From IMG/VR virus record IMGVR_UViG_3300029156_000001, positions 1 to 64,000 of that record: a stretch of 64,000 nt of DNA. The stretch is one strand, 5' to 3'. Source of the stretch: a virus. Taxonomy: Duplodnaviria; Heunggongvirae; Uroviricota; Caudoviricetes. The first letter of the stretch is position 1. Each line of letters opens with the position of its first letter. This document shows, in pieces, positions 7,769 to 22,664 of this stretch. The position numbers were made by a program, and so were the translations under genes. Under the pieces are notes generated by a model. The model was not told where the DNA came from. It ran no database searches and was given only the letters and a program-made list of their open reading frames with translations.

Positions 7769-7795
7769 ATTCTTCGTTCTAACGAACGAAGTGAG

Positions 7796-8251: not shown

Positions 8252-8674
8252 TCATCTGATCGCCTCTGCAAATGCATTCAGGCCCTCTTGTGTGTCGATG
8301 TGGTAGCAATTAGGCGTACCGCCTTCGGGCCACCATTCATCCGGTGCGGGACAACCACAGTGACCCGCTACGCGAACTACTGTACCGTGCGTTTCATGAA
8401 GCTTAATGGCTTGTTCCATCGTAAGCGAAACACGGGCCGGTGCTTTCCAGGTGGCCACCCAATAGTACCACGCTCGCGTGAGCGTCCAGCCGCCCTGACA
8501 CTCTTTGGTTCCGTCAGGACCGGAACCAAGATAGCCCACAATGTTGGATCGCACCTCACCTTTGCTTCGTAAGCACTCGGGCCAAGGATCTCGGATAGGA
8601 ATACCGGCTTCAATCAATTCGTTGGTGCATTCAACATCAACGATTTCAGGTTCTTCACCAGCTAAATTCTTCAT
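8252..8674 (-). CDS. hypothetical protein (Cys/Trp-rich)
   Basis: 140 aa ORF upstream of tRNA-Ile; no recognisable motif. Confidence 0.35.
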   Translation of the reverse strand: MKNLAGEEPEIVDVECTNELIEAGIPIRDPWPECLRSKGEVRSNIVGYLGSGPDGTKECQGGWTLTRAWYYWVATWKAPARVSLTMEQAIKLHETHGTVVRVAGHCGCPAPDEWWPEGGTPNCYHIDTQEGLNAFAEAIR

Positions 8675-8682
8675 GGTGTATT

Positions 8683-8760
8683 TGGTCCGAGAGGGAGGAT
8701 TTGAACCTCCGCATCACGACTTATCAGGCCGTTGCCTTGACCAGACTTGGCTACTCTCGG
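8683..8760 (-). tRNA. tRNA-Ile (anticodon GAU)
   Basis: acceptor CCGAGAG/CTCTCGG, anticodon arm ACGGC-CTGATAA-GTCGT, T-arm GGAGG-TTCAAAT-CCTCC, encoded CCA. Confidence 0.6.
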
Positions 8761-8761
8761 T

Positions 8762-9034
8762 TTATAGCAGTCCACTAATGCGTGCTGCTTGTGCGGGCGT
8801 AAAAGGCCGCATGTTTTCGTAGTTGGAATTACCCGCGAGACGCTCGACCACTTCGACGCCATCGTACAGAGTGGCAAACCACAAGATATATCCCATAGGA
8901 GCAAATTGCTCTTGAAGTTTACGAACTTCTTGACGGGCCTCGTCAATGTTATTGACTTCAATATGAATATCTGAATCGCGGCTCGTAAAGGTGCCGTTGT
9001 GGATGCCCCACGCAAGTCTTAGTGTCTTATTCAT
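8762..9034 (-). CDS. hypothetical protein
   Basis: 90 aa ORF between tRNA genes. Confidence 0.3.
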   Translation of the reverse strand: MNKTLRLAWGIHNGTFTSRDSDIHIEVNNIDEARQEVRKLQEQFAPMGYILWFATLYDGVEVVERLAGNSNYENMRPFTPAQAARISGLL

Positions 9035-9375
9035 TTTACTACCAGTCCATAGCGTGATTTAATAGTAGCAGATTCTAGAACTACAACACGATCTTCTGGT
9101 TCAATGTAGACGCACAATAGGTCGCAAGTTGTATTATCGAAAGGAATTCGTTTTGTTCCTGATCTGTTCGGACGATGAGACTTAAGGGTAACAATCCATC
9201 CTGTGTCTTCTGGAGTTTTTGTTCTAGTTGACTTAACTTGAACTCGTTGCAGTCTATCTTTGTAGACAACTAAGTCAAAAGGAGCTTTGCCAGATGTGTC
9301 CATAAAGACAAAGTATCCCTGAGCGGCGAAATGTGCCGCACTTTTAAGCTCACCAATAGTTCCTAAATCAGACAT
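9031..9375 (-). CDS. hypothetical protein
   Basis: 114 aa ORF; start overlaps stop of upstream gene (coupled). Confidence 0.35.
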   Translation of the reverse strand: MSDLGTIGELKSAAHFAAQGYFVFMDTSGKAPFDLVVYKDRLQRVQVKSTRTKTPEDTGWIVTLKSHRPNRSGTKRIPFDNTTCDLLCVYIEPEDRVVVLESATIKSRYGLVVK

Positions 9376-9382
9376 ATATTTT

Positions 9383-9469
9383 TGGCGGAAGGTAGAGAGA
9401 ATCGAACCCCGGGCCTTTTACAACCCCCCTGGTATTCAACACCAGTTTGTCACCTTGACGGTACCTTCC
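9383..9469 (-). tRNA. tRNA-Ser (anticodon UGA), type II
   Basis: 87 nt, acceptor GGAAGGT/ACCTTCC, anticodon arm CTGGT-GTTGAAT-ACCAG, long variable arm, T-arm GGGG-TTCGATT-CTCT, encoded CCA. Confidence 0.6.
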
Positions 9470-9944
9470 ATTTTTATTCGTGACTCAATCGACGCACGTT
9501 ACCTAGTGCCTGATGCATGGCACGAGTATAACCTTCCCAAAAGCGATAATCACTCAGGCGAGCACGAAAAGCGTCACAGTCCTTATCGCCAATTTCAGTG
9601 AGTTCCTTTTCAGCGGAAGCGGCACGCTCTTGGGCCGACTTGAGTTCTTCCTCAAGCTCCGCAACGATGCCCTTGTACTCGAACTTACTGAGCACGACGC
9701 TTTAGTCCCCGCTTTGACCAAGGGGCTCGTTGACTCTTACGTTGCTCACGCCGACGGGCTTTGATAAAGCTCTCTTCGTTGGCCTCTTGGGTCGGACGCG
9801 GCATATAGCCACGGAGCCAACGAAGGATGGTTTCGTTCACAAGCTCACCATTACGTCGAGCTTCCATCAGAGACGCGATGGCGTCCTTGGGCGTCACTTT
9901 GCCCTTTTTGACCCGTTCGCGTAGCGAACCTTCTTTCAACAGAC

Positions 9945-10421
9945 TCATTCTAAGTCCTCCGGAAAATGTTTTTTGGTTATAACCTCCCCGATACCGAGAT
10001 CGAGGATGTCTCGCAGTAGTCGTTGTACGTCACCATCATACGGTGCTTTGAGCCGTACGTCAAGCCAAGAGTAGAATTTTTCGTCTTCGACTATCTCGAT
10101 CTCGGTATCGGGGAGATCTTCAAAGTAATCTGCGTCCGTTCCGGCCGCAGGCCGGATCCGAATGATGATGTCACTCTTGCGAGAAGTAGAAGGGCGTGGG
10201 CCTTTTGTTGTTTTGGTCTCACGGATATTCGCCTTAGGCGAAGTTCCGTCATTTTGGAAATTTTGCGGCCCACCCCTTAGTCTACTCTGCAACGCCTCCT
10301 CAGGCGACAGCCCGAGGCTGATCTCTTCTTTTGTACGTCGGAAACGCTTTTCACCAGTCACAGCCTTGTACGACTCAATGTCGTGGATCTGGGCCGCGTG
10401 TTCGGGAGTGATTTCATTCAT
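9945..10421 (-). CDS. hypothetical protein
   Basis: 158 aa ORF. Confidence 0.35.
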   Translation of the reverse strand: MNEITPEHAAQIHDIESYKAVTGEKRFRRTKEEISLGLSPEEALQSRLRGGPQNFQNDGTSPKANIRETKTTKGPRPSTSRKSDIIIRIRPAAGTDADYFEDLPDTEIEIVEDEKFYSWLDVRLKAPYDGDVQRLLRDILDLGIGEVITKKHFPEDLE

Positions 10422-10464
10422 GACACCCTAGTATAGCACGCAAAGCGTGCTGGTCAAGTTATTT

Positions 10465-10552
10465 TGGAAGTAAGTGTGGGATTCGAACCCACGGGGCTGT
10501 TACACCCGGCAGCTTAGCAAGCTGCTACAATAAGCCACTCTGTCAACTTACC
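10465..10552 (-). tRNA. tRNA-Ser (anticodon GCU), type II
   Basis: 88 nt, anticodon arm GCAGC-TTGCTAA-GCTGC, long variable arm, T-arm GTGGG-TTCGAAT-CCCAC, encoded CCA. Confidence 0.6.
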
Positions 10553-10559
10553 ATTATTT

Positions 10560-10634
10560 TGGAGACCGGGGTGCGAATCGAACGCACGTATGAAGGGTTG
10601 CAGCCAACAGCCTAAGCCACTCAGCCACCCGGCC
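10560..10634 (-). tRNA. tRNA, possibly Cys (anticodon GCA?) with U73; anticodon stem poorly paired
   Basis: acceptor GGCCGGG/CCCGGTC (G2-U71), T-arm GTGCG-TTCGATT-CGCAC, U73 discriminator, candidate loop CTGCAAC. Confidence 0.35.
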
Positions 10635-10910
10635 TAATTTACGGCATTGAAATGTGTTCTGTTGATAGATAGATGGTTCCGTCACGACTCCATGTACAAT
10701 ACCACCCTAAAGCAGCAAGGTGTTCTTCGATCAACTCTTTTCTGGTATTGCCATATATGTTTACGTGTGCATATAATTTACCTTGACGTAAACGTTTGGC
10801 AATAGTACGCAAAGCACGTCGAACTTCCTTTTGGAGTGTTTTTTGCTTGCGTTTTTCATACATGGGCAGATACTTGTCGGTAAACTGTCGTGTTGTCGGA
10901 ATTTTTACCA

Positions 10911-11477
10911 TCATCCAATCTCCAAATCTAATTTTTCGAAACCACGATCTTCTACCAACTCCAAGTCCGTTCCGGACTTGAGCATACGATCATACAATAC
11001 AATCGAGACAGCTACGGCGAGATTGGTGCAATGTCGCGACGGGATTTGAATAAAGTGATGACAGTGTTGAAGCGTCACACGCTCTAGGCCACCGTCTTCG
11101 GGACCGAAGACGTAGATGGCATTTTTAGGATGTTCAAACGTCGTCAAGGGCTGGGTGCCCGGCGTGATCTCTACGGCTACCGGAACGGCGTCTTGAAATT
11201 GATCAAAGGGTCTGTCATACTGCCTAAGCTCAACGTCCGCATAGCCCTTCATGCGTTCCTCGCGGGGCAGACGATGCTTGCGATTCATGGAGACGCGGTT
11301 GCCCGTGTACCACAGTTGCCCCATTCCGAAGCACGAACAAGACCGTAGGACAGCACCGACATTACGAGCGTGCTTCGGATTAGTTAGGACGACGGCAGGA
11401 GGTACGCCGAACTTCTTTTTGCCCGGCTCAAAGGACTCCATGTCGCGAGTGAGTTTATCACGTAGTTTGTTGGTCAT
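10911..11477 (-). CDS. SpoU/TrmH-family RNA 2'-O-methyltransferase
   Basis: NVGAVLRSCSCFG motif (SPOUT class N-x-GA-x-x-R-x-x-x-x-FG), 188 aa. Confidence 0.65.
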   Translation of the reverse strand: MTNKLRDKLTRDMESFEPGKKKFGVPPAVVLTNPKHARNVGAVLRSCSCFGMGQLWYTGNRVSMNRKHRLPREERMKGYADVELRQYDRPFDQFQDAVPVAVEITPGTQPLTTFEHPKNAIYVFGPEDGGLERVTLQHCHHFIQIPSRHCTNLAVAVSIVLYDRMLKSGTDLELVEDRGFEKLDLEIG

Positions 11478-11759
11478 CCCACAACTCTTTCAGAAATCTG
11501 GGTGGAAAAGCTTTCTTTTTACGTCTACACCAGTCAAATACAAAATCCCATTGACGTTGCGAAGGAAATGCTGGTTTGCTCGCCAAGTAAAACCAATTGA
11601 ACTTATCGATGCCTGGATCACCCTTCAAAGTCATGAAACCTCGACGCTCTACCTCTGCCTCGCCCTTTTGGCCAACGAGATCAAAGGCTAGATCACAGTG
11701 GCCCCAGGCATGACAAGCGTGAAACGTGCCATCGCGGGCAAGGTATCCGAGTTCAGGTT

Positions 11760-12182
11760 TCATGACACATCCTTTATTCGTCGTTGTTTGTCACAATGTT
11801 TACACTCATCATTAAGACCAAAGGGTTTACTGGCGTTTTTAGAAAAGGTATTGTGAGGTAGGTAAATACGACATCTGTAGCATCGAATATTACCATCTAT
11901 GTCAGTAATTCTCCGTCCTCGCCTACCGGCTTCACTATTGCATGTCTTGTGTGAAAGTGCAACGTTATTTACATCAAAGAAAAGCACCTGAGGGTTGTTA
12001 CTGTCCAGCCAACTAACCTTGTGGTCAATTGACATATCTTGTGGCCTTTCGATAATTTGACCACATCTATAGCATGTTGTCAATCTTAATCGCTGAGCAA
12101 AACTATACAGTAAAGCTTTTACTAGCCTGTTGGTAGCGGTACCTATAGGCATGCCCAACTGCTGTCTTTTCTTTTTGCTCAT
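11760..12182 (-). CDS. HNH endonuclease (start trimmed to internal Met to avoid overlap)
   Basis: CYRCG...IDHKVSWLDSNN...N...HKTCN HNH motif; ORF track extends to 12437 but overlaps the next gene. Confidence 0.55.
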   Translation of the reverse strand: MSKKKRQQLGMPIGTATNRLVKALLYSFAQRLRLTTCYRCGQIIERPQDMSIDHKVSWLDSNNPQVLFFDVNNVALSHKTCNSEAGRRGRRITDIDGNIRCYRCRIYLPHNTFSKNASKPFGLNDECKHCDKQRRIKDVS

Positions 12183-12262
12183 GTTGGTTACGGGGCTGAG
12201 AATTGCACTCAGTTCCCTTGATTCAAAGTCAAGGATGTTTCTGTTACACCACCCCGTAGTGA

Positions 12263-12595
12263 TTACTTTTTGCGGCGGGCCGCAGATTCGCGACGACGAC
12301 GACGCTCTCTCTTTTTCTTCGCGGAGTATTTGGCCAAGCCACCAATTACACCAACGAAAACGCATGCCGCCAGGAATAGTACCATGATGGCGGCGACAAA
12401 GGCGAGCGGTCCCCAAAAGGGACAAGTCACCCACCACCAGGACCAGCCAGCGACGACGCCGACTTCCCCAAGTTTGAGTCCGACGAACAGCAGGCCAAGC
12501 AGGCCAAGAATAGGAAATGCGGGGCGAGCGGTTTCGGTAGACATGATTTTCTTCCGTTTGTTCGGCTTAGGAGCCGAGGTCATAGTAAGTTTCAT
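12263..12595 (-). CDS. small membrane protein (two TM helices, basic C-terminus)
   Basis: hydrophobic segments GLLGLLFVGL and FVAAIMVLFLAACVFVGVIGGL followed by KKKRERRRRRE. Confidence 0.4.
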   Translation of the reverse strand: MKLTMTSAPKPNKRKKIMSTETARPAFPILGLLGLLFVGLKLGEVGVVAGWSWWWVTCPFWGPLAFVAAIMVLFLAACVFVGVIGGLAKYSAKKKRERRRRRESAARRKK

Positions 12596-12648
12596 GCCCT
12601 ATTATACTCGCTCTGCTCGTGAAGTCAAACTTTAACTTCGAAATGTTC

Positions 12649-12722
12649 TGGCGACCCCAGGGAGTATCGATCTCCCGCTACCACCGTGACAGGGTGGCGT
12701 TCTACCATTAAACTATGGAGTC
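12649..12722 (-). tRNA. tRNA-Asp (anticodon GUC)
   Basis: acceptor GACTCCA/TGGGGTC, D-stem GTTT/GAAC, anticodon arm CCACC-CTGTCAC-GGTGG, T-arm GGGAG-ATCGATA-CTCCC, encoded CCA; 5' 15 nt overlap the last codons of pyrB. Confidence 0.65.
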
Positions 12723-13523
12723 AAGTGATGTTGCTAGTAAGGTTTTGCGTATTTGAAGACCGTATGCGACTTGCTTAAAATACACAGCCCTTTTGTCTTG
12801 TTCAATTGCGTTCGGCAATTCTTGTGTGCGTGGTAGTGGATGCATGATGATGGCATCTTCCTTAATATCAGGAAGCATTTTCTCCTCCATCCCATACAAG
12901 ACACCTTCTCTTTTGAGAGAGCGTTCCGTTTGTGGTCGTGTCATGTAAATGACATCGGCTTTGCCAATTTCATTGATATCTGGAAAATCAAAGATGTCCT
13001 GCTTGACAACCTCGACATCAAATTGATTTAGAACAGCAATGAATGAATTGATTGTACGGGCGTTTTCCAGGTCTCCCCAGATCAGAACCCTGTTGCCGTC
13101 GATCCTGCCCTTTTCTCGCCAGATAGTATAGGCGTCCGTTAGAGCCTGCGTTGGGTGACTACCGATGCCATCACCGGCATTGATGATAGGAACGGCTGCT
13201 ACTTCGGCAGCTTTTTGTGCGGCCCCCATTTCTGGATGCCTTAGCACAATAATATCGGCGTAGTTGCCCACGACCTTAATAGTATCTTCTAAAGATTCGC
13301 CTTTGGTAGTCGAGCTAGACGCAGTAGCATTCTCTACGGTAATGACGCCCCCGCCTAACCTAAGTGCGGCCGACTCAAACGACAATCGTGTTCTGGTGGA
13401 TGGCTCGTAAAAGAGAGTGGCTAAAACAAACGGATCACACTCGGCCACTTCGGCAGCAGACGTATGGAAGATCCTTTCTAGCGTATCTCTAGAAAACTGA
13501 TCGGCTTTTAGAATGTGCTTCAT
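12708..13523 (-). CDS. pyrB: aspartate carbamoyltransferase catalytic chain
   Basis: STRTR carbamoyl-phosphate binding motif, HPTQALTD, C-terminal HPLPR (ATCase rather than OTCase); ATG at 13521-13523 preferred over the TTG listed at 13541. Confidence 0.75.
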   Translation of the reverse strand: MKHILKADQFSRDTLERIFHTSAAEVAECDPFVLATLFYEPSTRTRLSFESAALRLGGGVITVENATASSSTTKGESLEDTIKVVGNYADIIVLRHPEMGAAQKAAEVAAVPIINAGDGIGSHPTQALTDAYTIWREKGRIDGNRVLIWGDLENARTINSFIAVLNQFDVEVVKQDIFDFPDINEIGKADVIYMTRPQTERSLKREGVLYGMEEKMLPDIKEDAIIMHPLPRTQELPNAIEQDKRAVYFKQVAYGLQIRKTLLATSLDSIV

Positions 13524-13527
13524 GTTT

Positions 13528-13601
13528 TGGCAGGGGATCAACGAATCGAACGCTGGTCTTCGGGTTTGGAATCCGATATGTTACCACTACACCAATCCCC
13601 T
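13528..13601 (-). tRNA. tRNA-Trp (anticodon CCA)
   Basis: A1-U72 and G73 as in E. coli tRNA-Trp, acceptor AGGGGAT/ATCCCCT, anticodon loop TTCCAAA, T-arm CAGCG-TTCGATT-CGTTG, encoded CCA. Confidence 0.65.
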
Positions 13602-13735
13602 ATATTTCATAATGACACTTAAGATACCAAAGTGTAGTTTATCTGGCACTATGATTGGTGCCGCCCCCAGGTAACGCTCCTGGTCCCCCTGGGTTTCAAC
13701 CAGATGTGCAAGACTTCTACACCAAGGCGGCGATT

Positions 13736-14869
13736 TTACGGCAGGTCGATAGGATCTCGAAAGACGATACCACCTACGAAAATTCGTGGAATCTGATCGT
13801 CCGTCCGATCAAAGAATCGAACGGTCAATATTTTTCCAATGTACTGTTGTCGTTCTTCGTACTGCCGACGACGTTCCGGCATGGAACCCTTCCAAAGACA
13901 CTCAAAGGTTGCATCCGTCACGTCATTGCGACAGACAAAGACGGCATGACCCTTCATTTTACCTATACCATCGATCACGTCTACCACTTCGAACTCGGCA
14001 TCTTGAAACTCTTTCACTTTCAAGAGTTCAGCAGAACGATATCCCCAAATGTATGTGCCGTTATGACTTCGTAGAATAGCACCCTCATATCCCCGCGTTA
14101 CAAACGTGCCATATGCTGACCACATATCAGTTTCGTTTGCAACCAGGACGGTTGGCACCCTTTCCACATTCTTACTTGGCTGGAAATGAGGTTTGAGATA
14201 AAGAGCGTCGGAGCGAGCCTTCCATGAGAGAGTGTCGTCCCCTAGTACCACCGGCATATCGTAAACATGAAAGATGAGTCGGGCACTTTCGGGCTTATAC
14301 GATTTAGTGCCGGGGACCGCCGATTTTGCCCAAGACGTAATTCGCTGACATGATTCTCCGTGAGTGTATAGTTCGCCATCTAGAGTGATACCTTCGGGCA
14401 GCCAGTTGGCAAGCTGTTCTTGTACCAGGGGGATCGTCCACGGCTTCCCTTGGCGGGAGGTCAGGGCGATACTACCATCGGCGGCCCTCTGAGCAAGGCA
14501 ACGTACCCCATCTAGCTTAGGCTGAATGTCTACGCCGCCTTCATAACTAAGATTTTTCCTTTTCGAGCCCTTGAAAGAATGGGCCAACATAGGCAAGGGT
14601 AGTTGCTCTTGAGCATCCTCTGGAGTAAGCGAGTATTTCCGCTCTAGTTTATATGTGTGTAGCGACTGTGCCTCCAGTACGGCTTGCTCGTCGGGAGTAG
14701 TAGCATTCTTACGTCCCGCGTTCTTTGCCTCGGCTGTCTTACGACTGATTTGAAGCTTACCCCCGACGGTGCCATATTCCGTCAGGATATCTGCACCGTC
14801 GGTGAAGACTCGCCACTGACGGAGATCGCCGCCTTTAGCTTTGTGAAACAGTGTAGGTAGTTTTTGCAT
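13736..14869 (-). CDS. ATP-dependent DNA ligase (T7-type)
   Basis: motif I KLDGVRCLA (K-x-D-G-x-R), motif IV EGAILR, motif V LLKVKEF; 377 aa. Confidence 0.8.
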   Translation of the reverse strand: MQKLPTLFHKAKGGDLRQWRVFTDGADILTEYGTVGGKLQISRKTAEAKNAGRKNATTPDEQAVLEAQSLHTYKLERKYSLTPEDAQEQLPLPMLAHSFKGSKRKNLSYEGGVDIQPKLDGVRCLAQRAADGSIALTSRQGKPWTIPLVQEQLANWLPEGITLDGELYTHGESCQRITSWAKSAVPGTKSYKPESARLIFHVYDMPVVLGDDTLSWKARSDALYLKPHFQPSKNVERVPTVLVANETDMWSAYGTFVTRGYEGAILRSHNGTYIWGYRSAELLKVKEFQDAEFEVVDVIDGIGKMKGHAVFVCRNDVTDATFECLWKGSMPERRRQYEERQQYIGKILTVRFFDRTDDQIPRIFVGGIVFRDPIDLP

Positions 14870-15134
14870 TGGTGATTTTCAGCCAGCGGATCAAATGTTT
14901 GACAGTTGTGGGACCAATGAAACAGTGTCCTTCGCCAAAGGTGTCATGCACAAGCCTGTGACATGGTTTACAAAGGCCAATTGTGATGGCACCCTTACGT
15001 CTGGAAAGAAGGTGCTCGTTGAACCTAGGATCCTTACGTGGCACCATATGATGCCGCGTAAAATCGTCCTTTTTGCACGGTCCACAAGCTCGACAAGTGG
15101 GAGGATAGAGCCATTTGCGTTTTTTAGCCATCAA
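14835..15134 (-). CDS. small HNH endonuclease
   Basis: CxxCxxC ... HHMVPR ... CKPCHRLVH zinc-ribbon HNH signature. Confidence 0.6.
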   Translation of the reverse strand: MMAKKRKWLYPPTCRACGPCKKDDFTRHHMVPRKDPRFNEHLLSRRKGAITIGLCKPCHRLVHDTFGEGHCFIGPTTVKHLIRWLKITNAKTTYTVSQS

Positions 15135-15382
15135 TCAACCCTACTGAGAATGTAGTCTTCTTCGAGAGCGTCCCATAGCCATTGTACTGCTAGTGACTTA
15201 GATGAAAAACCAGGACTGAGTTCTTCATAAAAGCGTTTATACTGGACGTTTTTGATGCCGGTCCACCACAATCCCTTATGTTTAAAAACGGCGTACTGGC
15301 CATTGTCAAAGGTTGATATCTTCATAGTGTTTGGTAGGCCCGGAAGGAATTGCACCCTCATCTGATGGTTCGTAGCCACCAA
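15131..15382 (-). CDS. hypothetical protein
   Basis: 83 aa ORF translationally coupled to downstream HNH gene. Confidence 0.3.
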   Translation of the reverse strand: MVATNHQMRVQFLPGLPNTMKISTFDNGQYAVFKHKGLWWTGIKNVQYKRFYEELSPGFSSKSLAVQWLWDALEEDYILSRVD

Positions 15383-15696
15383 TGCTGTCTGTTACACCAC
15401 AGGCCCATTTGTTTCTGTTATTCTACACGCCGCAGGCGTGTTGGGGTGAAAGTTCGGTTCTGCCCCGAATCCTCTCGGGTCACAGCCGAGTAGGCTACTA
15501 TTACAACACAATCACCGTTCGCTCCGCTCACGGATTTAGATGTACCGCGAGCAGTCTTTCGAGCACCACAGACAAAACCTCTTCTGCAAGTAGATTCGTG
15601 TTGTCATGGTGTTCGTCTTACTAATCACCTTCCAGGCGGTCATATCATGAATGCCGAAGAAGCATATCACTTGACGCCACCACGGGCCGGTAAACA

Positions 15697-16365
15697 TCAG
15701 AATGAGTAGCCCAGAAGGACGAAGAGTGTACCGCCATTGAGGCTGGGGCTGTTCACGAAGATATCAGAGTCACTGGCTCCGAAGTGCTGCCGGTACAGAC
15801 CCGCGAGGCTCCAGTTGTCGGACATGAACCATCTGCTGCCGACTTGAGCGTACGGAGCATAGCCGGTGTCACGGTCACTGATAACAGACGTGTACGTGGG
15901 GTCGATGTCGGTATCGATACTGAAAGCCGAGACGCCACCACTAGCAAAAACTTGCCAACGATCAGTCAGCATCCAGTTTTTACGAAGGCCAAAGTAGAGT
16001 TCACGGACCGTCGAGGTTGTGTCACTCACGGGGCGGTTTTCGTAAAAGCCGTCGCTGGAAATGTTCTGGCCCAGCGAAAAGCCAACTTCCGGACCGAAGC
16101 CGTCCTTGCCGCAGAAATCGGCCTGGACGGTAAAAAGCTGTTGCTCGTCGGTTTGCTCCCAATCATTCTGGGCATCGTAGTTTCGCCAACCGTATCCGAT
16201 ATCGACGGTCGGGGCGAGTTGTCCTTGCGGGCCTTGACAGGCGGCGAGGAGGACTAGGGTTGCCGTAGCAAGTAGTAGATTCTTCATGCGTGCATTATAC
16301 TGCACGCATGGAGGGTTGTCAACCTTCTTCTGCTTCAATTTGTTGCAGGGCGTGTGCTTTGGCAA
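15697..16365 (-). CDS. outer-membrane beta-barrel protein with lipoprotein-type signal (Lom/Ail/OmpX-like)
   Basis: signal peptide with LAAC lipobox, alternating amphipathic beta-strand pattern, aromatic-rich, C-terminal ...GYSF (terminal Phe typical of OM beta-barrels). Confidence 0.5.
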   Translation of the reverse strand: MPKHTPCNKLKQKKVDNPPCVQYNARMKNLLLATATLVLLAACQGPQGQLAPTVDIGYGWRNYDAQNDWEQTDEQQLFTVQADFCGKDGFGPEVGFSLGQNISSDGFYENRPVSDTTSTVRELYFGLRKNWMLTDRWQVFASGGVSAFSIDTDIDPTYTSVISDRDTGYAPYAQVGSRWFMSDNWSLAGLYRQHFGASDSDIFVNSPSLNGGTLFVLLGYSF

Positions 16366-16497
16366 TGCCTACCTCAGAGGCAAACTTGAAAGCGAAAATT
16401 AGGACTGTGCCTGTAATTACCGCAATTAGGACTTTTGAAGTGTTTTCGTTGATTTCGATTTTCATTAATCTCGTGCCTCGACTAGAGTGGTCGGGAA

Positions 16498-16570
16498 CCC
16501 GAGAATCGCACTCGGAGCTTCGGCTTATGAGGCCGACGTGTTACTGTTACACCAATTCCCACTCGTTTTA
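16498..16570 (-). tRNA. tRNA-Met (anticodon CAU), elongator or Ile2-type
   Basis: D-stem GTGT/ACAC, anticodon arm TCGGC-CTCATAA-GCCGA, T-arm CCGAG-TGCGATT-CTCGG, encoded CCA. Confidence 0.55.
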
Positions 16571-16786
16571 CTCATGATAGTAAAATTGTGCATTACGACT
16601 AAGATCCTGCATCGCCTGTCTTAGAACGAGAGTGTGTTCATCAGGACCGCGATCCCAAATAAAACATTCCATCGCGGCGTGCCGACAGGCATTAGGCATG
16701 TAGATGCTACCATTCCGAAGAGGGGTTTCAAAATCAGGAATGATAGCTACAACAGCATTAAAGAGATCTTCTTTAGAATATTGCAT
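16568..16786 (-). CDS. hypothetical protein (start trimmed to internal Met)
   Basis: ORF track start 16822 would overlap the upstream tRNA; internal Met at MQYSKEDLF avoids the overlap. Confidence 0.3.
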   Translation of the reverse strand: MQYSKEDLFNAVVAIIPDFETPLRNGSIYMPNACRHAAMECFIWDRGPDEHTLVLRQAMQDLSRNAQFYYHE

Positions 16787-16802
16787 AGTGTTTGGTAGGG
16801 TA

Positions 16803-16881
16803 GGTGGGAGTCGAACCCACAAACGACGCAGATTTTAAGTCTACCGGCGATGCCAATTAGCCTACTACCCCGCTTGTTTCT
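16803..16881 (-). tRNA. tRNA, short variable arm, apparent anticodon UAA (Leu-type) with A73 and encoded CCA
   Basis: paralog of the 6183/6273 tRNAs: acceptor GGGGTAG/CTACCCT, D-arm TAGGCTAATTGG, anticodon arm GTAGA-CTTAAAA-TCTGC, T-arm GTGGG-TTCGACT-CCCAC. Confidence 0.5.
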
Positions 16882-17326
16882 TTTTCAAGGCAATTGTGCC
16901 TTCGCGTACCCTAACACGATACCCATTATCGGTCCAGAAAGCACATTCGTCAACAGCGTCTTGGCGTCTGCCAATTGTGACCTGTAAGGCTTGCCAAGGC
17001 TCGTTGTCGGCATTGCGGCCCAGAATGATCCAGACGGGTTCGCTAGTCTCCACGGACTTCCCCTTCTATACGATCAAAGTCTTGCATGGCCGCATGAGCT
17101 TCGTAGTAGCCGTTATTGGTGCCGGGGCTGGTACTGGACTTTTTGATGGCCAATACAAGGTTGCTTAGGCCACGAAATACCCGAATCCATTGATCTCGTG
17201 AGAGCGAGAAGGGCTGTTCGGGTGTACTCGCAGGACCAGATTTGATCAGCCAGTCTTGGTTTTCGTCAGTCATACCCTACTATACCCCAGGAAGTGATGA
17301 TTGTCAAGCACTTCCTGGGGGTTGTT

Positions 17327-17404
17327 TGGTCGGAGCGGCTGGATTCGAACCAGCGTTCTGTAGCTTCCAAGGCCACCGAGGACTCCAGACTCCTCCACGC
17401 TCCG
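17327..17404 (-). tRNA. tRNA-Pro (anticodon UGG)
   Basis: C1-G72 as in bacterial tRNA-Pro, D-stem GAGG/CCTC, anticodon arm GTGGC-CTTGGAA-GCTAC, T-arm GCTGG-TTCGAAT-CCAGC, encoded CCA. Confidence 0.7.
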
Positions 17405-17412
17405 ATTGTGAT

Positions 17413-17501
17413 TGGCTCATGGACTAGGGTTTGCACCTAGGGTGGGGATTACTCCCGCGAGCTTAACAGGCTCGTGCCTTCGACTACTCGGCCATCCATG
17501 A
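17413..17501 (-). tRNA. type II tRNA with Tyr-like body but anticodon GUU
   Basis: 89 nt, acceptor TCATGGA/TCCATGA, D-arm GCC-GAGTAGTCGAA-GGC, anticodon arm CGAGC-CTGTTAA-GCTCG (E. coli tRNA-Tyr has CUGUAAA), long variable arm, T-arm CTAGG-TGCAAAC-CCTAG, encoded CCA. Confidence 0.5.
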
Positions 17502-17504
17502 ATA

Positions 17505-17579
17505 TGGCTGGGATACTACGACTCGAACGTAGAATACAAGAGTAACAATCTTGCGTGTTACCAATTACACCATATCCCA
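17505..17579 (-). tRNA. tRNA-Asn (anticodon GUU)
   Basis: U1-A72 as in E. coli tRNA-Asn, D-stem GTGT/ACAC, anticodon arm CAAGA-TTGTTAC-TCTTG, T-arm CTACG-TTCGAGT-CGTAG, encoded CCA. Confidence 0.65.
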
Positions 17580-17585
17580 ATGTTC

Positions 17586-17661
17586 TGGTTGCGGGACTGA
17601 GATTCGAACTCAGGTTGCCGGATTCAGAGTCCGGAGTATTGGGCCTCTATACTATCCCGCG
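17586..17661 (-). tRNA. tRNA-Gln (anticodon CUG) with unpaired C1xA72
   Basis: acceptor CGCGGGA/TCCCGCA, D-stem GTAT/ATAC, anticodon arm CCGGA-CTCTGAA-TCCGG, T-arm CTGAG-TTCGAAT-CTCAG, encoded CCA. Confidence 0.6.
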
Positions 17662-17750
17662 TTTCAAAAGACGCGACCACTCGCCACCCACCCCGGATTA
17701 CCTCCTACGGAGGAGAGCCGGGCCTAAGCCTTGTCCGTCGCGTCTTTGTT

Positions 17751-18011
17751 TTATCTATTTGCCTCGCGAAGAATGGCGTCTACTTCATCCATGTCTGGAC
17801 TACTTGTGTTATGCCAATAGAAGCACGTTCTACAACAGTAGGGACGAATACCCTCTCGACTATCGGCTTCTCGTGCCGCTTTGGCAGATTTATAAGCCCT
17901 CTTGCTGTAGCAACGTTTTTCAAGCCGTTCTTTTTTGAGTTGTCTTTTAGATTTCATTGTTTTGGTAGGCAATGAGGGTAACGATCCCCCGTCTTTGGTA
18001 TGTAACACCAA
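17751..18011 (-). CDS. hypothetical zinc-finger protein
   Basis: 86 aa, CC...C...H cluster near C-terminus (YCCRTCFYWH). Confidence 0.3.
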   Translation of the reverse strand: MVLHTKDGGSLPSLPTKTMKSKRQLKKERLEKRCYSKRAYKSAKAAREADSREGIRPYCCRTCFYWHNTSSPDMDEVDAILREANR

Positions 18012-18026
18012 TGTTCTTCCATTGAA

Positions 18027-18419
18027 CTAATCGCCCTCTTGTTCCGTCTTCGGAACATTGTCTGAATGCGGTGCTACCGCTTGCCACTGTACATCGTTAT
18101 AAGGATCTGACAAATCGTCACAGTAATGGGTTTGCTTGGAACGATTGAACGTTAAGCGTCCCTCTCGATGCAGTTTGCCTTTGTCAAATTTGAAACGCAG
18201 GCACGATTTGTAGCCCGCTTGAGTATTTGGCTCGAAAAAGATACGGACCGCTTCATATAGGTGGACCGGCGGAAAAACTAGGCCATCTTCCTCAAACGAA
18301 GGAATGGTAAATTTGATCCACCAATAACCTTCGCTGCCGGCACTGATCCACTGTTCATAAGTGGGAGGGTTGTTTTGCCACGTCATGCCACAGTATAGCA
18401 CTCGATGGTGGCATGTCAA
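18027..18419 (-). CDS. hypothetical protein
   Basis: 130 aa ORF in co-directional gene string. Confidence 0.35.
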   Translation of the reverse strand: MTCHHRVLYCGMTWQNNPPTYEQWISAGSEGYWWIKFTIPSFEEDGLVFPPVHLYEAVRIFFEPNTQAGYKSCLRFKFDKGKLHREGRLTFNRSKQTHYCDDLSDPYNDVQWQAVAPHSDNVPKTEQEGD

Positions 18420-18685
18420 GCTATGACTTCAAATTCTTCTAGAAGCCATACCTCATCATCAACCCATTCGGACCAACCATCGAAGAGAATCTCAATAGAC
18501 CAACGTTCTGGTCCGTTTTCCTTAATTCTCACTTGACAACCCTCATGTTGTCCTTGTGTCCTAAGGTCAGCCTGTAAATCTTGCTGGATAAATGCGATTG
18601 CTTTTTGCTTATCTAGATAGATATCAATATTTTGTGGTGAACAATCGACCGAATCCCACCCTCGTCTAACAAGATATACTTTCAT
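18416..18685 (-). CDS. hypothetical protein
   Basis: 89 aa ORF, start/stop coupled with neighbours. Confidence 0.3.
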   Translation of the reverse strand: MKVYLVRRGWDSVDCSPQNIDIYLDKQKAIAFIQQDLQADLRTQGQHEGCQVRIKENGPERWSIEILFDGWSEWVDDEVWLLEEFEVIA

Positions 18686-18945
18686 GAGATTCTAATCTTA
18701 ATTTTGCGATAAACACCACTTTTTGCTGTTAGGTGATGCAAATGCACAAGATTCAAATACTCAAGAAACTCCTGTTTGTTACGATAAACAATATGGGGAC
18801 ATTTTCCGCTTTTGTTTTTTAGTATCCATTGATCATTTTCTACGCAGACAATGTACTTCTCTTGAATTTCATCTTTGAGCACCCATGCGACATGATCACC
18901 TGGGTCTACATCGTAAATGAGTGGGCTGTTATCTAGTATTAGCAT
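18682..18945 (-). CDS. hypothetical protein
   Basis: 87 aa ORF, coupled. Confidence 0.3.
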   Translation of the reverse strand: MLILDNSPLIYDVDPGDHVAWVLKDEIQEKYIVCVENDQWILKNKSGKCPHIVYRNKQEFLEYLNLVHLHHLTAKSGVYRKIKIRIS

Positions 18946-19019
18946 ATTAATGTTTTGGAGCCGGTTCCCGGTACCGCCCCGGGGGCTAAAGCTTACAAGG
19001 CAATTGTTTTACTATTAAA

Positions 19020-19391
19020 CTAAACCGGCTTACGCCTAATGCGTTTGGCGTTTTTGTGTGATTTGAAAGCACGGCAAATACTGCATCTACAGCCACCATC
19101 ATACTTTCTATTTGTACCATGTTTTGCTGGTGGAATCTGACTAATGGTTTTAGCAAGATGACATGGGTGGCATAAAACTTGACACTTCGCAAGTTCTTTT
19201 TGTAGTCTCTTTTCGGACCAAGACCAAACTCTATGTTCTATTTTTTGACTAGGATCAATATGATCAACCTCTAGTCTTTTACTGGAGCCACACTTTACAC
19301 AAGGACCATTTTTCTCTAGCCAATCAGCACGTCGTCGAGCCACCATGAGACGCTGATATTCTCGTTGTTTATTTGGATCCTTGTATGGCAT
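19020..19391 (-). CDS. HNH endonuclease
   Basis: CVKCGS...EVDHIDPS...CHPCH motif. Confidence 0.7.
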   Translation of the reverse strand: MPYKDPNKQREYQRLMVARRRADWLEKNGPCVKCGSSKRLEVDHIDPSQKIEHRVWSWSEKRLQKELAKCQVLCHPCHLAKTISQIPPAKHGTNRKYDGGCRCSICRAFKSHKNAKRIRRKPV

Positions 19392-19623
19392 ATGGACTAA
19401 AAGACATCAGGCACTTTCCATGTATCTTTCCAAATTGGTGCTCGAAAAACACGATCTTCTTTTGTGTTGTGCCATGCTCCGCATGAACATGGGCCATCAT
19501 CAAGATCGCATTCTGATCCGTTACGTCTTTTCCATCCTGTGCGTTCGTCCGTTTCCCAATCGGTATCGAAGACCGCTTCTAGGTAACCATCTTCGCGATA
19601 TACACATCTGGTGATAGCCATAA

Positions 19624-19929
19624 CTATTTGTACAGCTTAAAGCTTTCGAAAAGTTCAGGCCACTCTTTACGGGGACAGAATGCGACCGCAACAGTTTCGT
19701 GACCAATGACGGATTCCGTGATGACAACGTGATTGTCCGCGTTAGACATAGCTTGTGCTAATTCTGCATCGTTTACGATACAGGTGACCTTCCTAAAGGA
19801 GTCCGCAAGCCATCGTTGCATATCTCGATGGCCCGCATACTTGAGAAAGCAAGCCACCGAGGCGTGAGCGACACCATTTATTGCATACCCAAGGGGTACG
19901 TCTTCTCGCACCAGAATATACATTTTCAT
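19624..19929 (-). CDS. peptidyl-tRNA hydrolase, PTH2 family
   Basis: KMYILVREDVxLGxxxxGVAHASVA aligns with PTH2 MxLVVRxDLxMGKGKxAAQCSHA; C-terminal ...FKLYK matches PTH2 C-terminus (...LKLY); ~100 aa size. Confidence 0.7.
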   Translation of the reverse strand: MKMYILVREDVPLGYAINGVAHASVACFLKYAGHRDMQRWLADSFRKVTCIVNDAELAQAMSNADNHVVITESVIGHETVAVAFCPRKEWPELFESFKLYK

Positions 19930-19941
19930 GTCGCTACTCTC

Positions 19942-20286
19942 CTAATTATTGTAAGCCTTACGGCCAAAAAGTCGTACTGCACGGTACATCATATGACGTT
20001 TAATTAAACCTACCCCCGACTCTTTCATGACACGTAAAAAGATGCCGTCTGCATCCTTGCGTGATACCTCATGTGAGGAATAGAGCCAATCATGTAGGAC
20101 TGCCGCCTTGGTATACTTGCCTGTGGGCGGCACAATGTTCCAGAATGCACGGGGCACACTGGCAAAGTCTGTTGTAAATGAAGCGGGAACAACAAAAGTA
20201 TCTCTAGCACCCTCGTACACGAGATCTTGCAGTAGTTCCCATCTGTCGTTTTTACCCTCTTTAACGTGAAGCTCTGTTACGAACAT
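19942..20286 (-). CDS. DUF1353-family phage protein
   Basis: TDFASVPR...W...P..G.Y..AAVLHDWLY pattern characteristic of DUF1353. Confidence 0.45.
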   Translation of the reverse strand: MFVTELHVKEGKNDRWELLQDLVYEGARDTFVVPASFTTDFASVPRAFWNIVPPTGKYTKAAVLHDWLYSSHEVSRKDADGIFLRVMKESGVGLIKRHMMYRAVRLFGRKAYNN

Positions 20287-20333
20287 ATTATCCCCCCTTT
20301 TTTATTAGGACCCATAAGATAATACGCTAAGAG

Positions 20334-20408
20334 TGGTACTCCGAGAGGGTATCGATCCCTCTTCTCCACCTTGAAAGGGTGGTATCCTAGCCAGTAGACG
20401 ACCGGAGC
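20334..20408 (-). tRNA. tRNA-Glu (anticodon UUC)
   Basis: acceptor GCTCCGG/TCGGAGT, anticodon arm CCACC-CTTTCAA-GGTGG, T-arm GAGGG-ATCGATA-CCCTC, encoded CCA. Confidence 0.6.
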
Positions 20409-20439
20409 TATCGGGCGGCGATGCCGCCCTCAAAGTTAT

Positions 20440-20517
20440 TGGTCTGCGGTGTGAGAATCGAACTCACCCGGAGAGATCAGGCCCCGACTCTCCCCTTAGG
20501 GAGTTCCCTGACCGCAG
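20440..20517 (-). tRNA. tRNA-like element with canonical acceptor/T-arm but unresolvable D/anticodon arms (possible pseudo-tRNA)
   Basis: acceptor CTGCGGT/ACCGCAG, T-arm GTGAG-TTCGATT-CTCAC, encoded CCA; interior contains GGAGAG...CTCTCC stem enclosing a 12-nt loop instead of a 7-nt anticodon loop. Confidence 0.35.
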
Positions 20518-20840
20518 TATTCTTCACGAAGCTCGCGAAGGGCAATTTTGTAGAGACGATAGTATTCGCTATCATCAGGTAGGCCGTGACGGTAATCCGA
20601 ACCACGAAGTTCGTGATATAGATTTAGGGCGGCGGTGATCTTGGGCTTCCTTCTTTGTGCCATGTTGGCCGCCCTAAAGGATTCCTTAAGCTTCACTCGT
20701 TGAGCAGTAGGAATGTCGCTCCAGCTAACGTCGCCCCAACTGGTGCGGGGGAACTTAGGAAGCGGACCAGTCTTACGTTCAGACTTTAGTTGTACTTGCT
20801 CGACTGCCAGATCTTTGATTAGTTGTTTCAATTCTCTCAT
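20496..20840 (-). CDS. hypothetical protein
   Basis: 114 aa ORF; 3' end overlaps the tRNA-like element. Confidence 0.3.
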   Translation of the reverse strand: MRELKQLIKDLAVEQVQLKSERKTGPLPKFPRTSWGDVSWSDIPTAQRVKLKESFRAANMAQRRKPKITAALNLYHELRGSDYRHGLPDDSEYYRLYKIALRELREEYCGQGTP

Positions 20841-20944
20841 ATCTATTCTCCATTTAAAGCGTTTACTTGAAATACAAAAACAGATATGGTGTCACGGTGG
20901 TCTATGTGTCTACGACATGATTTGCCTTTCGGGCAAAGAGTTGA

Positions 20945-21020
20945 TGGAGGGCACGGTGAGGTTCGAACTCACATCTTCCCGGTTTAGAGCCGGGTGCATT
21001 TCCACTAATGCTACGTGCCC
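20945..21020 (-). tRNA. amber suppressor tRNA (anticodon CUA), U73
   Basis: fully canonical 76-nt fold: acceptor GGGCACG/CGTGCCC, D-arm GCAT-TAGTGGAA-ATGC, anticodon arm CCCGG-CTCTAAA-CCGGG (U33, anticodon C-U-A, A37), T-arm GTGAG-TTCGAAC-CTCAC, encoded CCA. Confidence 0.65.
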
Positions 21021-21147
21021 CTACTCCCCGCTAACGGGGGAATTGTAAATGGCTGCCCTGGTTATGTTGCTTCCTTAGGAATTCAGATATCATGCAAGAA
21101 AACTGGCTACAGCCGCATTTGTTTCTGCCGCTTTTGCGGCAGTTGAG

Positions 21148-21223
21148 TGGTGGAAAGCTGGGGAATCGAACCCCACACACGGAGCTTGCAAAGCTCTGTC
21201 GCCTCCTTGGTACATGGCCCCCC
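21148..21223 (-). tRNA. tRNA-Ala (anticodon UGC), G3-U70
   Basis: acceptor GGGGGGC/GCTTTCC with G3-U70, anticodon arm (A)GAGC-TTTGCAA-GCTC(C), T-arm TGGGG-TTCGATT-CCCCA, ends CCACCA; D-arm poorly defined. Confidence 0.45.
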
Positions 21224-21234
21224 CATTATAAGCG

Positions 21235-21312
21235 AGTGACTAGGATTCGAACCTAGATCGTGAGCGTCAATAAGACTGGCCAGTCTGGGTGCTCATGTGT
21301 TACCGTTACACT
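21235..21312 (-). tRNA. tRNA-like element with expanded (~25 nt) anticodon-region loop; possible pseudogene
   Basis: T-arm CTAGG-TTCGAAT-CCTAG, D-arm GTGT-AACGGTA-ACAC, acceptor AGAGTGA/TCACTCG, no encoded CCA; TGAGC...GCTCA stem encloses 25 nt including palindrome AGACTGGCCAGTCT. Confidence 0.3.
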
Positions 21313-22664
21313 ATCACTCTATTCTCATATGTCTTTTACAGCATCTTCCGGAAGCTTCGTCTGTTTCTGTTACACTGACGTTGACATAATCGAAGTTCTA
21401 AAACTCGAAAAAGGTAGGACTTGCACCCACCAGCGGTTGTACGACCTATTTAGCTGCCTAATATTTTACGAGGACTCGAACCTCTTACCCTCCAAGGGAA
21501 TGCCGAATCGAACGGCTAACTGCTATTTTCATTTTCGAGCGTTTTGAAACGCAGGCACGACTGGAATCGAACCAGTATTTCCCTGCCGGGCGTACTATCC
21601 ATATTATACTACGTCTTAGTCCTGCGTTGAAAGATAGAGCATCTTGCGATCCCCTTCGTTTGTTTCGCTAGGATTCGCTGTAAATTCTTTCAAGGGCTTC
21701 CACACCCTCACCGGATCGTACGAACCCCGGCGGCTTCTACAACTATTACTATCCACAAACAAACTGAGGCTACGTCACACCTGTCGCAAGTTCACGTAGT
21801 CAGGTTCAGAAGGCATCGGCAATGTACTAGTCATTGCTTACTGAATTCATTTCCTTCGTCTGCCATACTCTATTGTACTATTGTAGGGGTTAAGGACTCC
21901 CTACGAGCCCCAATTTTGGTAACCACTGAAATTGGAAACGGGGCCGATTCACCTTTTTGGATCCACACTTTTATCTTGTCGGCAAAACCATTAGTGTTCT
22001 TAAATCTCGCACCGATCTAGTATAGGCAGCATTCCCGTGGTGACACACGGTCTCTTGCCACAACCTTAATCGTACGCTTCGGATGCGTCACCATCCATCC
22101 CTGTACTCGCTCATCCAGCTTCCGCAACGCTAGTGGATACCAGCCTTGCCGAAGGCAAGCTTTTCTCTATCCTGCGGCACACCCGAAGGCGACCGACTAA
22201 CAGCCTCAGCCCGGCCAAGAGCATAAGGTTTAATGTCCGGAGAACTCGGACAATACGTTCGCTTCGCTCACGAAGCGTTGATTTTGCGGGTTATGGGCCT
22301 CCCGCCAGCCACCTAAGAGTAACCGTCCGCTTTGACGTAACGAGACAGCAAGCGTAGCCGTCTCCCTCTTTCGGTCGTTCGATTTTGGAGCAAAAGCTCC
22401 AAGGAATATATCGTGCCGGTAGCTAAGCGGCAGCCGGTGATCGCTAATACAGGCCAAGTTTCCATCGATGTTTCCATCGTGTACTGACAAGCTGGTGGCT
22501 GGACGATACGTCCCTTACAGCAGCGGACGCTGAGCGTCTCCGCTGCCGTAGAGGTGATCCCGAGTTGTCGGATGGCATCGCTGCCAGAGCCCGAGGTATT
22601 GCCGCCTCACGATCCCCTGCGAAAAGCAGGCTAGACCCGGCTCGTCACGTCACCGCGACAGGAC

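Follow-up and report, generated by a model that had tools for sequence, protein, structure and literature searches.

The DNA stretch analysed here (the window; 64,000 nucleotides (nt), positions 1 to 64,000 of the IMG/VR virus record IMGVR_UViG_3300029156_000001, Caudoviricetes) contains a small open reading frame (ORF) that encodes a divergent, shortened protein with the fold found in Pth2, a peptidyl-tRNA hydrolase. The analyses described below show that this protein is a member of a large short subfamily common to phages and bacteria. The gene was located as follows:

19624..19929 (stop codon included), minus strand: Pth2-like ORF ('mini-Pth2'), ATG start, 101 amino acids (aa)

The deduced protein has the sequence MKMYILVREDVPLGYAINGVAHASVACFLKYAGHRDMQRWLADSFRKVTCIVNDAELAQAMSNADNHVVITESVIGHETVAVAFCPRKEWPELFESFKLYK; its N-terminal stretch reads ILVREDVPLGYAINGVAHASVA and its C terminus FKLYK, so that the C-terminal KLY described when the window was first inspected is indeed present. 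An initial reading of the letters alone (the original prediction) had proposed a PTH2-family peptidyl-tRNA hydrolase encoded by a phage. Of this proposal, membership in the PTH2 family was confirmed by the Pfam profile PF01981 and the phage nature of the DNA by rIIA and rIIB, HNH endonuclease genes, an array of transfer RNA (tRNA) genes and RNA-repair genes.

A Pfam search, named in the original prediction as its check, matched PF01981 (PTH2) with 32.1 bits (E = 1.4e-7), above the gathering score of 23. The match was limited to residues 1-75, corresponding to profile positions 1-80 of 115. A family alignment of 19 sequences (A1) served both as profile against the PDB and as input for AlphaFold2. 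The A1 profile matched all Pth2 chains in the PDB (1rlk with 2e-6, 1rzw with 3e-5 and 2zv3 with 9e-5, followed by 1xty, 1wn2 and 1q7s). The AlphaFold2 model was obtained with a predicted local distance difference test value (pLDDT) of 94.8 and a predicted template modelling score (pTM) of 0.86, and shows the element order strand, helix, helix, strand, helix, strand, strand, helix, with strand beta3 formed by residues 67-72. This corresponds to the alpha/beta fold of Pth2, in which helices flank a four-stranded sheet. When this model was compared with the PDB using Foldseek, the first 13 places were all occupied by Pth2 structures (E 3.5e-6 to 2.3e-4, template modelling score TMq 0.71-0.78, identity 21-26%), the next match being Atu0240; among viral models the top matches were the 'peptidyl-tRNA hydrolase' proteins of Myrna and RaK2 together with giant-virus Pth2. 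With hhalign, a profile of the 172 family domains compared with one built from nine canonical Pth2 sequences yielded a probability of 98.7% and E = 3.7e-16. The homology of the ORF to Pth2 is not in doubt. The alignment over the whole length of Pth2 that had been claimed for it is supported by the structure, as seen with Foldseek, and not by the sequence models, the Pfam match ending at residue 75. A spurious ORF or a chance similarity can effectively be excluded; the small size of the ORF is the sole point for this explanation, and the constant length across hundreds of clusters, the strong Shine-Dalgarno sequence and the confident fold speak against it.

The archaeal and eukaryotic Pth2 proteins used for comparison (S. 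solfataricus, 1XTY; M. jannaschii MJ0051, 2ZV3; human PTRH2/Bit1, 1Q7S) have the whole-length alpha/beta fold in common with the ORF, as well as the VR.D start, the His of AHA, a Trp, the xK(V/I) strand, a Pro after beta4 and the C-terminal KL(Y); nevertheless, the ORF is approximately 15 residues shorter and only 21-26% identical to them. The canonical sequences were verified from the PDB and aligned to the family together with the phage proteins Myrna gp36, phiM12 gp226, K64-1 gp231 and phiCbK gp157. The large MAFFT alignment comprised 177 sequences, and all residue counts given here were taken over 172 family domains. Two motifs were found in all canonical Pth2 proteins, including those of phages: [K/E]GK...AQ..H close to the N-terminus and D.G.T behind strand 3. 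The corresponding positions of the window protein, as well as the residues retained, are encoded as follows:

19870..19896, minus strand: codons 12-20 (PLGYAINGV), corresponding to the loop and start of the helix that bear GKGK..AAQ in canonical Pth2; 2 aa shorter, no Lys or Gln
19864..19866, minus strand: codon CAC of His22, the invariant His of AHA (S. solfataricus H25); His in 163/172 domains
19789..19791, minus strand: codon AAG of Lys47, the invariant Lys of canonical GQxKV (K56); Lys in 168/172 domains
19714..19716, minus strand: codon GAA of Glu72, the last residue of strand beta3; Glu in 165/172 domains

The N-terminal block VVRxDLxMGxGKxAAQCSHA ascribed to the ORF in the original prediction is thus only partly there. 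VR.D, one Gly and AHA are found; the lysines of GxGK and the Gln of AAQ are missing because of the 2-aa deletion in this loop, and this missing half is the catalytic-looking part of the block. K18 of S. solfataricus aligns with either Y15 or I17, depending on the alignment. Position 15 of the family is occupied by His, Phe, Leu or Tyr and position 17 by Ile, Met, Val or Pro, Lys not being among the common residues at either position, and the Gln of AAQ is absent from the ORF and from the family. In addition, helix 3 of the family is approximately 5 residues shorter than in canonical Pth2, and the DAGxTQ..PGT loop after strand 3 is shortened by 3-4 or more residues, which removes the Thr (T90). 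Besides His22, Lys47 and Glu72, the family has kept Trp40, Pro86 and the C-terminal K-L-Y. Glu72 lines up with D86 both in the 177-sequence MAFFT alignment and in hhalign, and is probably the counterpart of this Asp of the D-A-G motif; in the model it closes strand beta3, which is the position of the catalytic Asp in canonical Pth2. K18, D86 and T90 are said, in work from 2005 attributed to Fromant and co-workers, to be the active-site residues of S. solfataricus Pth2 as defined by mutation. As the Lys of GxGK and the Thr loop are missing and Asp is exchanged for Glu, hydrolase activity of the ORF is not to be assumed. Net charge and isoelectric point (pI) were also considered as a proxy for tRNA binding, and were discarded as non-discriminating (family median pI 7.1; the canonical proteins Ta0108 and Myrna gp36 are likewise acidic).

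An orthodox Pth2 of the archaeal/eukaryotic type, equipped with the complete catalytic apparatus, had been implied initially. These alignments contradict this assignment of the ORF, and we regard it as highly improbable. It can draw on the PF01981 match above threshold and on the VR.D...AHA block and C-terminal KLY. The canonical proteins, however, keep [K/E]GK, AQ..H and D.G.T, all of which are altered here, and the two NCBIfam equivalog cut-offs were missed by a wide margin (NF003314, 28.5 bits vs a cut-off of 126; TIGR00283, 28.4 bits vs 82). The same is seen with the PHROG profiles: canonical Pth2 proteins match phrog_1866 over their full length with 1.4e-30 and 2.4e-26, whereas this profile, although the best one for the window protein, matched it with 5.8e-9 over residues 1-76. 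Judged from these matches, the protein appears to be an outlier of phrog_1866 rather than a typical member.

Counting His22 and Glu72 together demonstrated that the two residues are kept or lost jointly. Both were present in 163 domains and both missing in 7; only His was missing in 2, and there was no domain in which only Glu was missing. All seven domains without Glu72 were therefore also without His22, and each of them is the C-terminal half of a protein that either is tandem-duplicated or has a longer multi-domain architecture, whereas the N-terminal halves keep AHA...TES in 5/5 proteins checked. Tandem duplications with one degenerate half were found in at least six family proteins (P0038, P0070, P0117, P0123, P0142 and P0183; labels P0xxx designate family proteins, labels L0xx the loci of related phage, metagenome and genome contigs). 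Archaeal Pth2 is reported to be a homodimer, and the duplications are an indirect hint that family members may be dimeric as well. The joint loss of His22 and Glu72 from one half is the pattern expected for a fused homodimeric enzyme that keeps one active site. The tandem proteins may nevertheless belong to one clade, so that the complementary decay could represent a single evolutionary event, and the long fused members are likely in part due to gene-calling read-through. Of the domain fusions, only the tandem duplications were informative; otherwise HNH, a CoaE-like kinase or no known domain was seen in the long members.

The retained pair has to be weighed against the possibility of a pseudoenzyme, that is, a Pth2 fold which only binds the tRNA acceptor end or the acylated CCA, for example to shield or chaperone phage tRNAs or to act as a decoy for host toxins that target tRNA. 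That all 172 domains have lost the Lys of GxGK, the Gln of AAQ and the loop with the Thr would be in line with this, as would the missed equivalog cut-offs and the close interleaving of the phage members with tRNA genes described below. On the other hand, the near-invariant His22 and Glu72, jointly lost in one tandem half, resemble a catalytic dyad, though a binding site could mimic this, and stand-alone chromosomal homologues in many bacteria are hard to square with anti-toxin decoys. Taken together, we consider a pseudoenzyme possible, with the chances clearly on the other side.

The short subfamily turned out to be widespread. There are 37 close homologues of the same length as the ORF (44-100% identity), and a scan of 1.84 billion representatives yielded 568 clusters (50% identity) with E<=1e-3 and, at the stricter threshold of E<=1e-10, 361. 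With two family members as queries, tblastn found 58 and 197 cultured-phage records, respectively. Carriers among the phages are T5-like Epseptimavirus of Salmonella and E. coli, including the BASEL phage IrmaTschudi (Bas28; bas28_0128), the P. aeruginosa Pakpunavirus PAK_P2 (gp064), PAK_P4, JG004, PaoP5 and K8, the P. syringae phiPsa315 group, Pantoea phage AAS21 (gp166), Acinetobacter phage ME3 and Variovorax phage V45v66. The last of these is the nearest cultured relative for the Pth2-like gene; no near-identical DNA to the window was found in the phage collection. In bacteria, scanned with one genome per species, 49 loci were obtained, mostly from Burkholderiales. Members are present on complete chromosomes of Roseateles, Variovorax, Massilia, Undibacterium, Duganella and Pseudoduganella and on an Alicycliphilus plasmid, and further ones occur in Lysobacter, Emticicia and assorted metagenome-assembled genomes (MAGs). 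The bacterial homologues are approximately 50% identical to the window protein, and cultured-phage and bacterial members overall show 28-50% identity to it. WP_125948204.1 (Variovorax), WP_404303322.1 (Comamonadaceae), bas28_0128, the Salmonella Epseptimavirus members, PAK_P2 gp064, AAS21 gp166 and the member of Variovorax phage V45v66 belong to the family by profile and BLAST and have a His/Glu/Lys pattern like that of the window ORF.

The short subfamily is already contained in the databases, where it has been named from domain homology. Most phage records read 'hypothetical protein', with '(putative) peptidyl-tRNA hydrolase' as an occasional and 'putative endolysin' as a further alternative, and RefSeq designates the bacterial members 'peptidyl-tRNA hydrolase' or 'hypothetical protein'. 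The endolysin label, found, for example, for Salmonella phages fuchur and vaffelhjerte, Escherichia phage vB_Eco_mar003J3, Pseudomonas phage K8 and Pyxpy01/02, is apparently a propagated mis-annotation because the fold is that of Pth2.

Canonical phage Pth2 proteins (phrog_1866) are encoded by Myrna (gp36), Sinorhizobium phage phiM12 (gp226), the Klebsiella phages RaK2 (ORF188) and K64-1 (gp231), phiCbK (gp157) and Atu_ph07. They retain the Lys, Gln, Asp and Thr motifs, which the window ORF does not, and were not reached by tblastn with the window ORF as query. The motif W-L-x-x-(S/P)-F-x-K is common to Myrna gp36, phiM12 and the short subfamily, which suggests that they share an ancestor within a bacterial/phage branch. 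The gene for canonical Pth2 is preceded in two unrelated phages by one of the RelA/SpoT family, located approximately 1-1.5 kb upstream (phiM12, L023 705-1457; phiCbK, L025 180-791).

The Pth2-like ORF of the window is surrounded by tRNA genes and by a set of genes for tRNA maintenance and repair:

6183..21320, minus strand (same strand as the ORF): array of 24 tRNA genes around the Pth2-like ORF
20334-20408: tRNA-Glu, nearest tRNA gene upstream
17963-18036: tRNA-Val, nearest tRNA gene downstream
883-2148, minus strand: CCA-adding enzyme (PolyA_pol head and HD), of the tRNA maintenance/repair set amid the tRNA genes
4751-5899, minus strand: RNA ligase with PHA02142 OB domain, same set
6902-7441, minus strand: protein with the HAD_SAK_2 'Swiss Army Knife' RNA-repair domain, same set
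10911-11477, minus strand: SpoU-family methylase, same set

A DNA ligase gene is also located in this region. The immediate surroundings of the ORF are tightly packed:

19942..20286, minus strand: upstream gene DUF1353, 114 aa (PF07087, 6.5e-36), 12 nt from the Pth2-like start
19939..19943, minus strand: Shine-Dalgarno sequence AGGAG, 9 nt before the start codon; overlaps the DUF1353 stop codon TAG
19397..19621, minus strand: 74-aa ORF without family match, beginning 2 nt past the Pth2-like stop
19020..19391, minus strand: HNH-type endonuclease, 123 aa, two genes downstream of the Pth2-like ORF, resembling Bxz1 gp167

The coding-strand sequence 5′ of the start reads ATAATTAGGAGAGTAGCGAC-ATG. 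Since AGGAG overlaps the upstream stop and the next ORF begins 2 nt after the Pth2-like stop, the gene lies within a tightly packed minus-strand unit. By spacing, the DUF1353 gene and the Pth2-like gene belong to one transcription unit, and co-transcription of the ORF within the tRNA/RNA-repair region is probable.

Related phage and metagenome loci showed a comparable arrangement. Flanking tRNA genes were detected at 14 of 18 non-redundant loci, and in 8 of these 14 a same-strand tRNA gene was located at most 50 bp from the Pth2-like gene. At L005, for instance, tRNA genes are found 5 bp before and 2 bp after the gene, and in IrmaTschudi tRNA-Ser lies 17 bp before bas28_0128 in a T5-like tRNA region. 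Such placement of the phage members implies co-expression with the tRNAs. Around the canonical phage Pth2 genes, in contrast, no tRNA was found within 2.5 kb at 4/4 loci checked, and the same held within 5 kb at 38/40 genome loci scanned, where the bacterial members are surrounded by unrelated genes of the housekeeping or mobile-element type. Considering the stand-alone bacterial genes and the phage members distant from tRNAs, the tRNA link is a tendency of the phage members and not a rule of the family. All-against-all clustering of the ORFs from 22 phage/metagenome and 49 genome loci did not reveal any protein family that regularly accompanies the gene; the only exception, seen in three lineages, is a second Pth2-like paralogue. 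DUF1353 was considered as a conserved partner and rejected, as it is not kept beside family members elsewhere.

Among the genome loci, the exception with an array is L032 (NZ_JAILWB010000012.1, 157,945 bp, a Hydrogenophaga sp. MAG), where it surrounds the gene of a 76%-identical Pth2-like protein. The tRNA order is that of the window (Leu-cag, Ala-tgc, Glu-ttc, the gene, ..., Val-tac, Gln-ctg, Asn, Asn, Pro, Leu-taa, Met). The identical order and the 76% protein identity argue that L032 is probably a related phage that was binned into a Hydrogenophaga MAG, and the binning hints at a Comamonadaceae host.

An association of Pth2-like genes with phage tRNA arrays has a predecessor. Morgado and Vicente (2018) described tRNA arrays of cluster C mycobacteriophages that hold a 'PTH2-like' gene, genes with RF-1 domains and a transfer-messenger RNA (tmRNA) gene (PMC5966550). 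From its profile matches, we take this PTH2-like gene to be Bxz1 gp154 (L027 6757-7131). Bxz1 gp167 had been considered as well and was rejected, since it proved to be an HNH endonuclease and gp154 matches Pth2-like profiles instead. Like the window ORF, Bxz1 gp154 is short, lacks the GxGK Lys and lies in or abuts the tRNA array; its loop is likewise shortened and contains a conserved Glu (NEPD), and the His of Q..HA is present. It nevertheless represents a separate sister family that groups with the 'YEPD' paralogue phrog_34073. The proteins of phrog_34073 (Q..Q..HA, [Y/N]EPD) are also short and Lys-less (L003 13262-13555, L005 3067-3327, L015-17 12923-13219), and in three phage lineages this paralogue is encoded within a few kb of a short-subfamily member. 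No second Pth2-like gene was found in the window. The same type of HNH endonuclease accompanies the Bxz1 array and that of the window: Bxz1 gp167 (L026 2387-2755) lies between two tRNA-Thr genes inside the array, and its likeness to the window endonuclease was judged by eye, without a computed score. The two appear visibly homologous, suggesting that one small endonuclease type populates the tRNA arrays of phages with very different hosts.

Two further groups, bacterial Pth1 and the GGQ-type rescue factors (ArfB and RF-1 domain proteins), have unrelated folds and share the same proposed chemistry of acyl or peptidyl release. A 165-kb relative (L001) encodes a release-factor-like protein of 186 aa (11803-12363; PCRF and RF-1 in Pfam, GPGGQ) 1.5 kb downstream of its Pth2-like gene, and tmRNA genes were observed in the arrays of relatives (L003/L012 5296-5847, L005 1256-1649). 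No RF-1/GGQ-like gene was found in the window.

With regard to function, we favour a variant-active-site peptidyl- or N-acyl-aminoacyl-tRNA hydrolase that recycles tRNAs, and give this reading about an even chance. The Pth2-like protein would bind the acylated CCA 3′ end of a tRNA and hydrolyse the ester that links A76 to the peptidyl or N-acyl-aminoacyl group. Glu72, standing in for Asp, would be the base that activates water, assisted by His22. Loss of the Lys and the Thr loop would possibly open the pocket and shift the preferred acyl group. During the translation burst, drop-off, ribosome stalling or host toxins blocking aminoacyl-tRNAs may trap tRNAs, and the enzyme would return them, the phage's 24 as well as those of the host, to the pool during infection. 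Such a putative role in recycling after stalling or toxin action, as originally suggested, fits the genomic context. The idea itself is not new. Pth2 has been documented in phage RaK2 (ORF188; PMC3622015), the ribosome-rescue rationale was spelled out for Pth2 of jumbo-phage groups 2 and 3 (PMC7824862), and PMC5966550 is a second predecessor. What we did not find stated in the literature is that the array-embedded forms and the much larger short family analysed here are without the Lys and Thr motifs and that canonical phage Pth2 is encoded elsewhere in the genome.

Several observations weigh against tRNA hydrolysis by this protein. Two of the three residues reportedly required for catalysis, K18 and T90, are absent and the third, D86, is exchanged for Glu; moreover, HMMER against 1rlk and one global MAFFT run placed Glu72 four residues before D86. 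The NCBIfam Pth2 equivalog scores remain far under the cut-offs (28 bits vs 82 and 126). The approximately 50%-identical bacterial homologues stand alone, without tRNA or translation neighbours, and the phage members of PAK_P2, AAS21 and V45v66 do not adjoin tRNAs. Finally, literature searches turned up no experimental report on any member of the short subfamily.

The remodelled and shortened active-site loops, combined with a retained acidic residue and His, might instead belong to an active hydrolase with another substrate. This could be a deacylase with a part in counter-defence or quality control linked to the tRNA array, acting on mis-acylated phage tRNAs or on the N-acetyl-aminoacyl-tRNA that GNAT toxins produce, or else a non-tRNA esterase. 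RNA-repair neighbours are typical of responses to tRNA-targeting defences (a polynucleotide kinase gene lies near PAK_P2 gp064), and the co-occurrence of a second Lys-less paralogue in several phages suggests a division of labour. As toxin or antitoxin genes were not seen in linkage with the gene and the bacterial neighbours are unrelated, this explanation seems rather unlikely to us. A more specific proposal, in which the short Lys-less clade is a distinct His/Glu enzyme co-expressed with the tRNA arrays that clears a specific blocked tRNA (e.g., GNAT-toxin N-acetyl-aminoacyl-tRNA or other 3′-end adducts of tRNA-targeting defences) as a phage counter-defence instead of recycling peptidyl-tRNA in bulk, is more doubtful still. 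The stand-alone Burkholderiales genes with approximately 50% identity weaken a phage-specific counter-defence reading. If it were true, the clade would represent a new class of phage counter-defence factor, and its bacterial relatives would be housekeeping detoxifiers.

Further features of the window and of related loci were observed in the course of the analysis. A tRNA gene with the anticodon CTA, an amber suppressor (ARAGORN 'Pyl'), is located inside the tRNA array of the window (20945-21020, minus strand), and tRNA(CTA) genes were also found in relatives (L001 5491-5564; L003/L012 12850-12925; L004 5813-5888; L005 6648-6724 and 7362-7439; L015-L017 10309-10384). At L015-17 it is the only tRNA gene in 20 kb and lies 9 bp downstream of the Pth2-like gene. 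There is no indication that TAG is recoded in the window, as in a simple comparison of ORF lengths dropping the TAG stop lengthens the ORFs no more than dropping TGA or TAA. Between tRNA-Asp and tRNA-Trp the array contains an unusual metabolic gene, coding for an aspartate/ornithine carbamoyltransferase-like protein of 277 aa (OTCace_N and OTCace; 12708-13541, minus strand). An OMP_b-brl outer-membrane beta-barrel protein (15697-16365, minus strand), with a homologue in L001, and a lipoprotein-like protein (phrog_200; 26221-27228, minus strand) are also encoded in the window, which is consistent with a Gram-negative host. Between about 34000 and 44000 the G+C content is 0.55-0.58 compared to about 0.48 elsewhere, and long ORFs overlap on both strands, such as 35368-36486 (minus strand) and 35392-36480 (plus strand), the latter matching phrog_1221; this segment may be a module of different origin. 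One family member was found in a dense array of 37 tRNA genes on a contig of bacterial size (L002, ena:ERZ25039480 contig_20888, 644 kb; 6862-12772) together with HNH and DDE transposase genes. This array adjoins ARPP-1 and protein-kinase genes and resembles the 'tRNA array units' of bacterial genomes.

For the window itself, our results represent a modest annotation point and not a discovery. The original prediction appears right at the level of fold and family and over-stated at the level of motifs, and enzyme activity is plausible. To our knowledge, phage Pth2 proteins are commonly annotated and cited as translation-support or ribosome-rescue factors, none of which has been tested. Annotation by PF01981 alone lumps together at least two things, the canonical Pth2 with full motifs, usually encoded away from tRNA genes, and the short form, which is much more widespread, lacks the Lys and Thr motifs and is characteristically interleaved with tRNA genes in phages. 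Tractable members of the latter are available in the E. coli K-12 phage IrmaTschudi/Bas28 and in the P. aeruginosa phages PAK_P2 and PaoP5. If the short form is inactive, database entries in the hundreds bear a wrong name. If it is active, the accepted picture of the Pth2 active site needs revision, and phage tRNA arrays bring along their own recycling enzyme.

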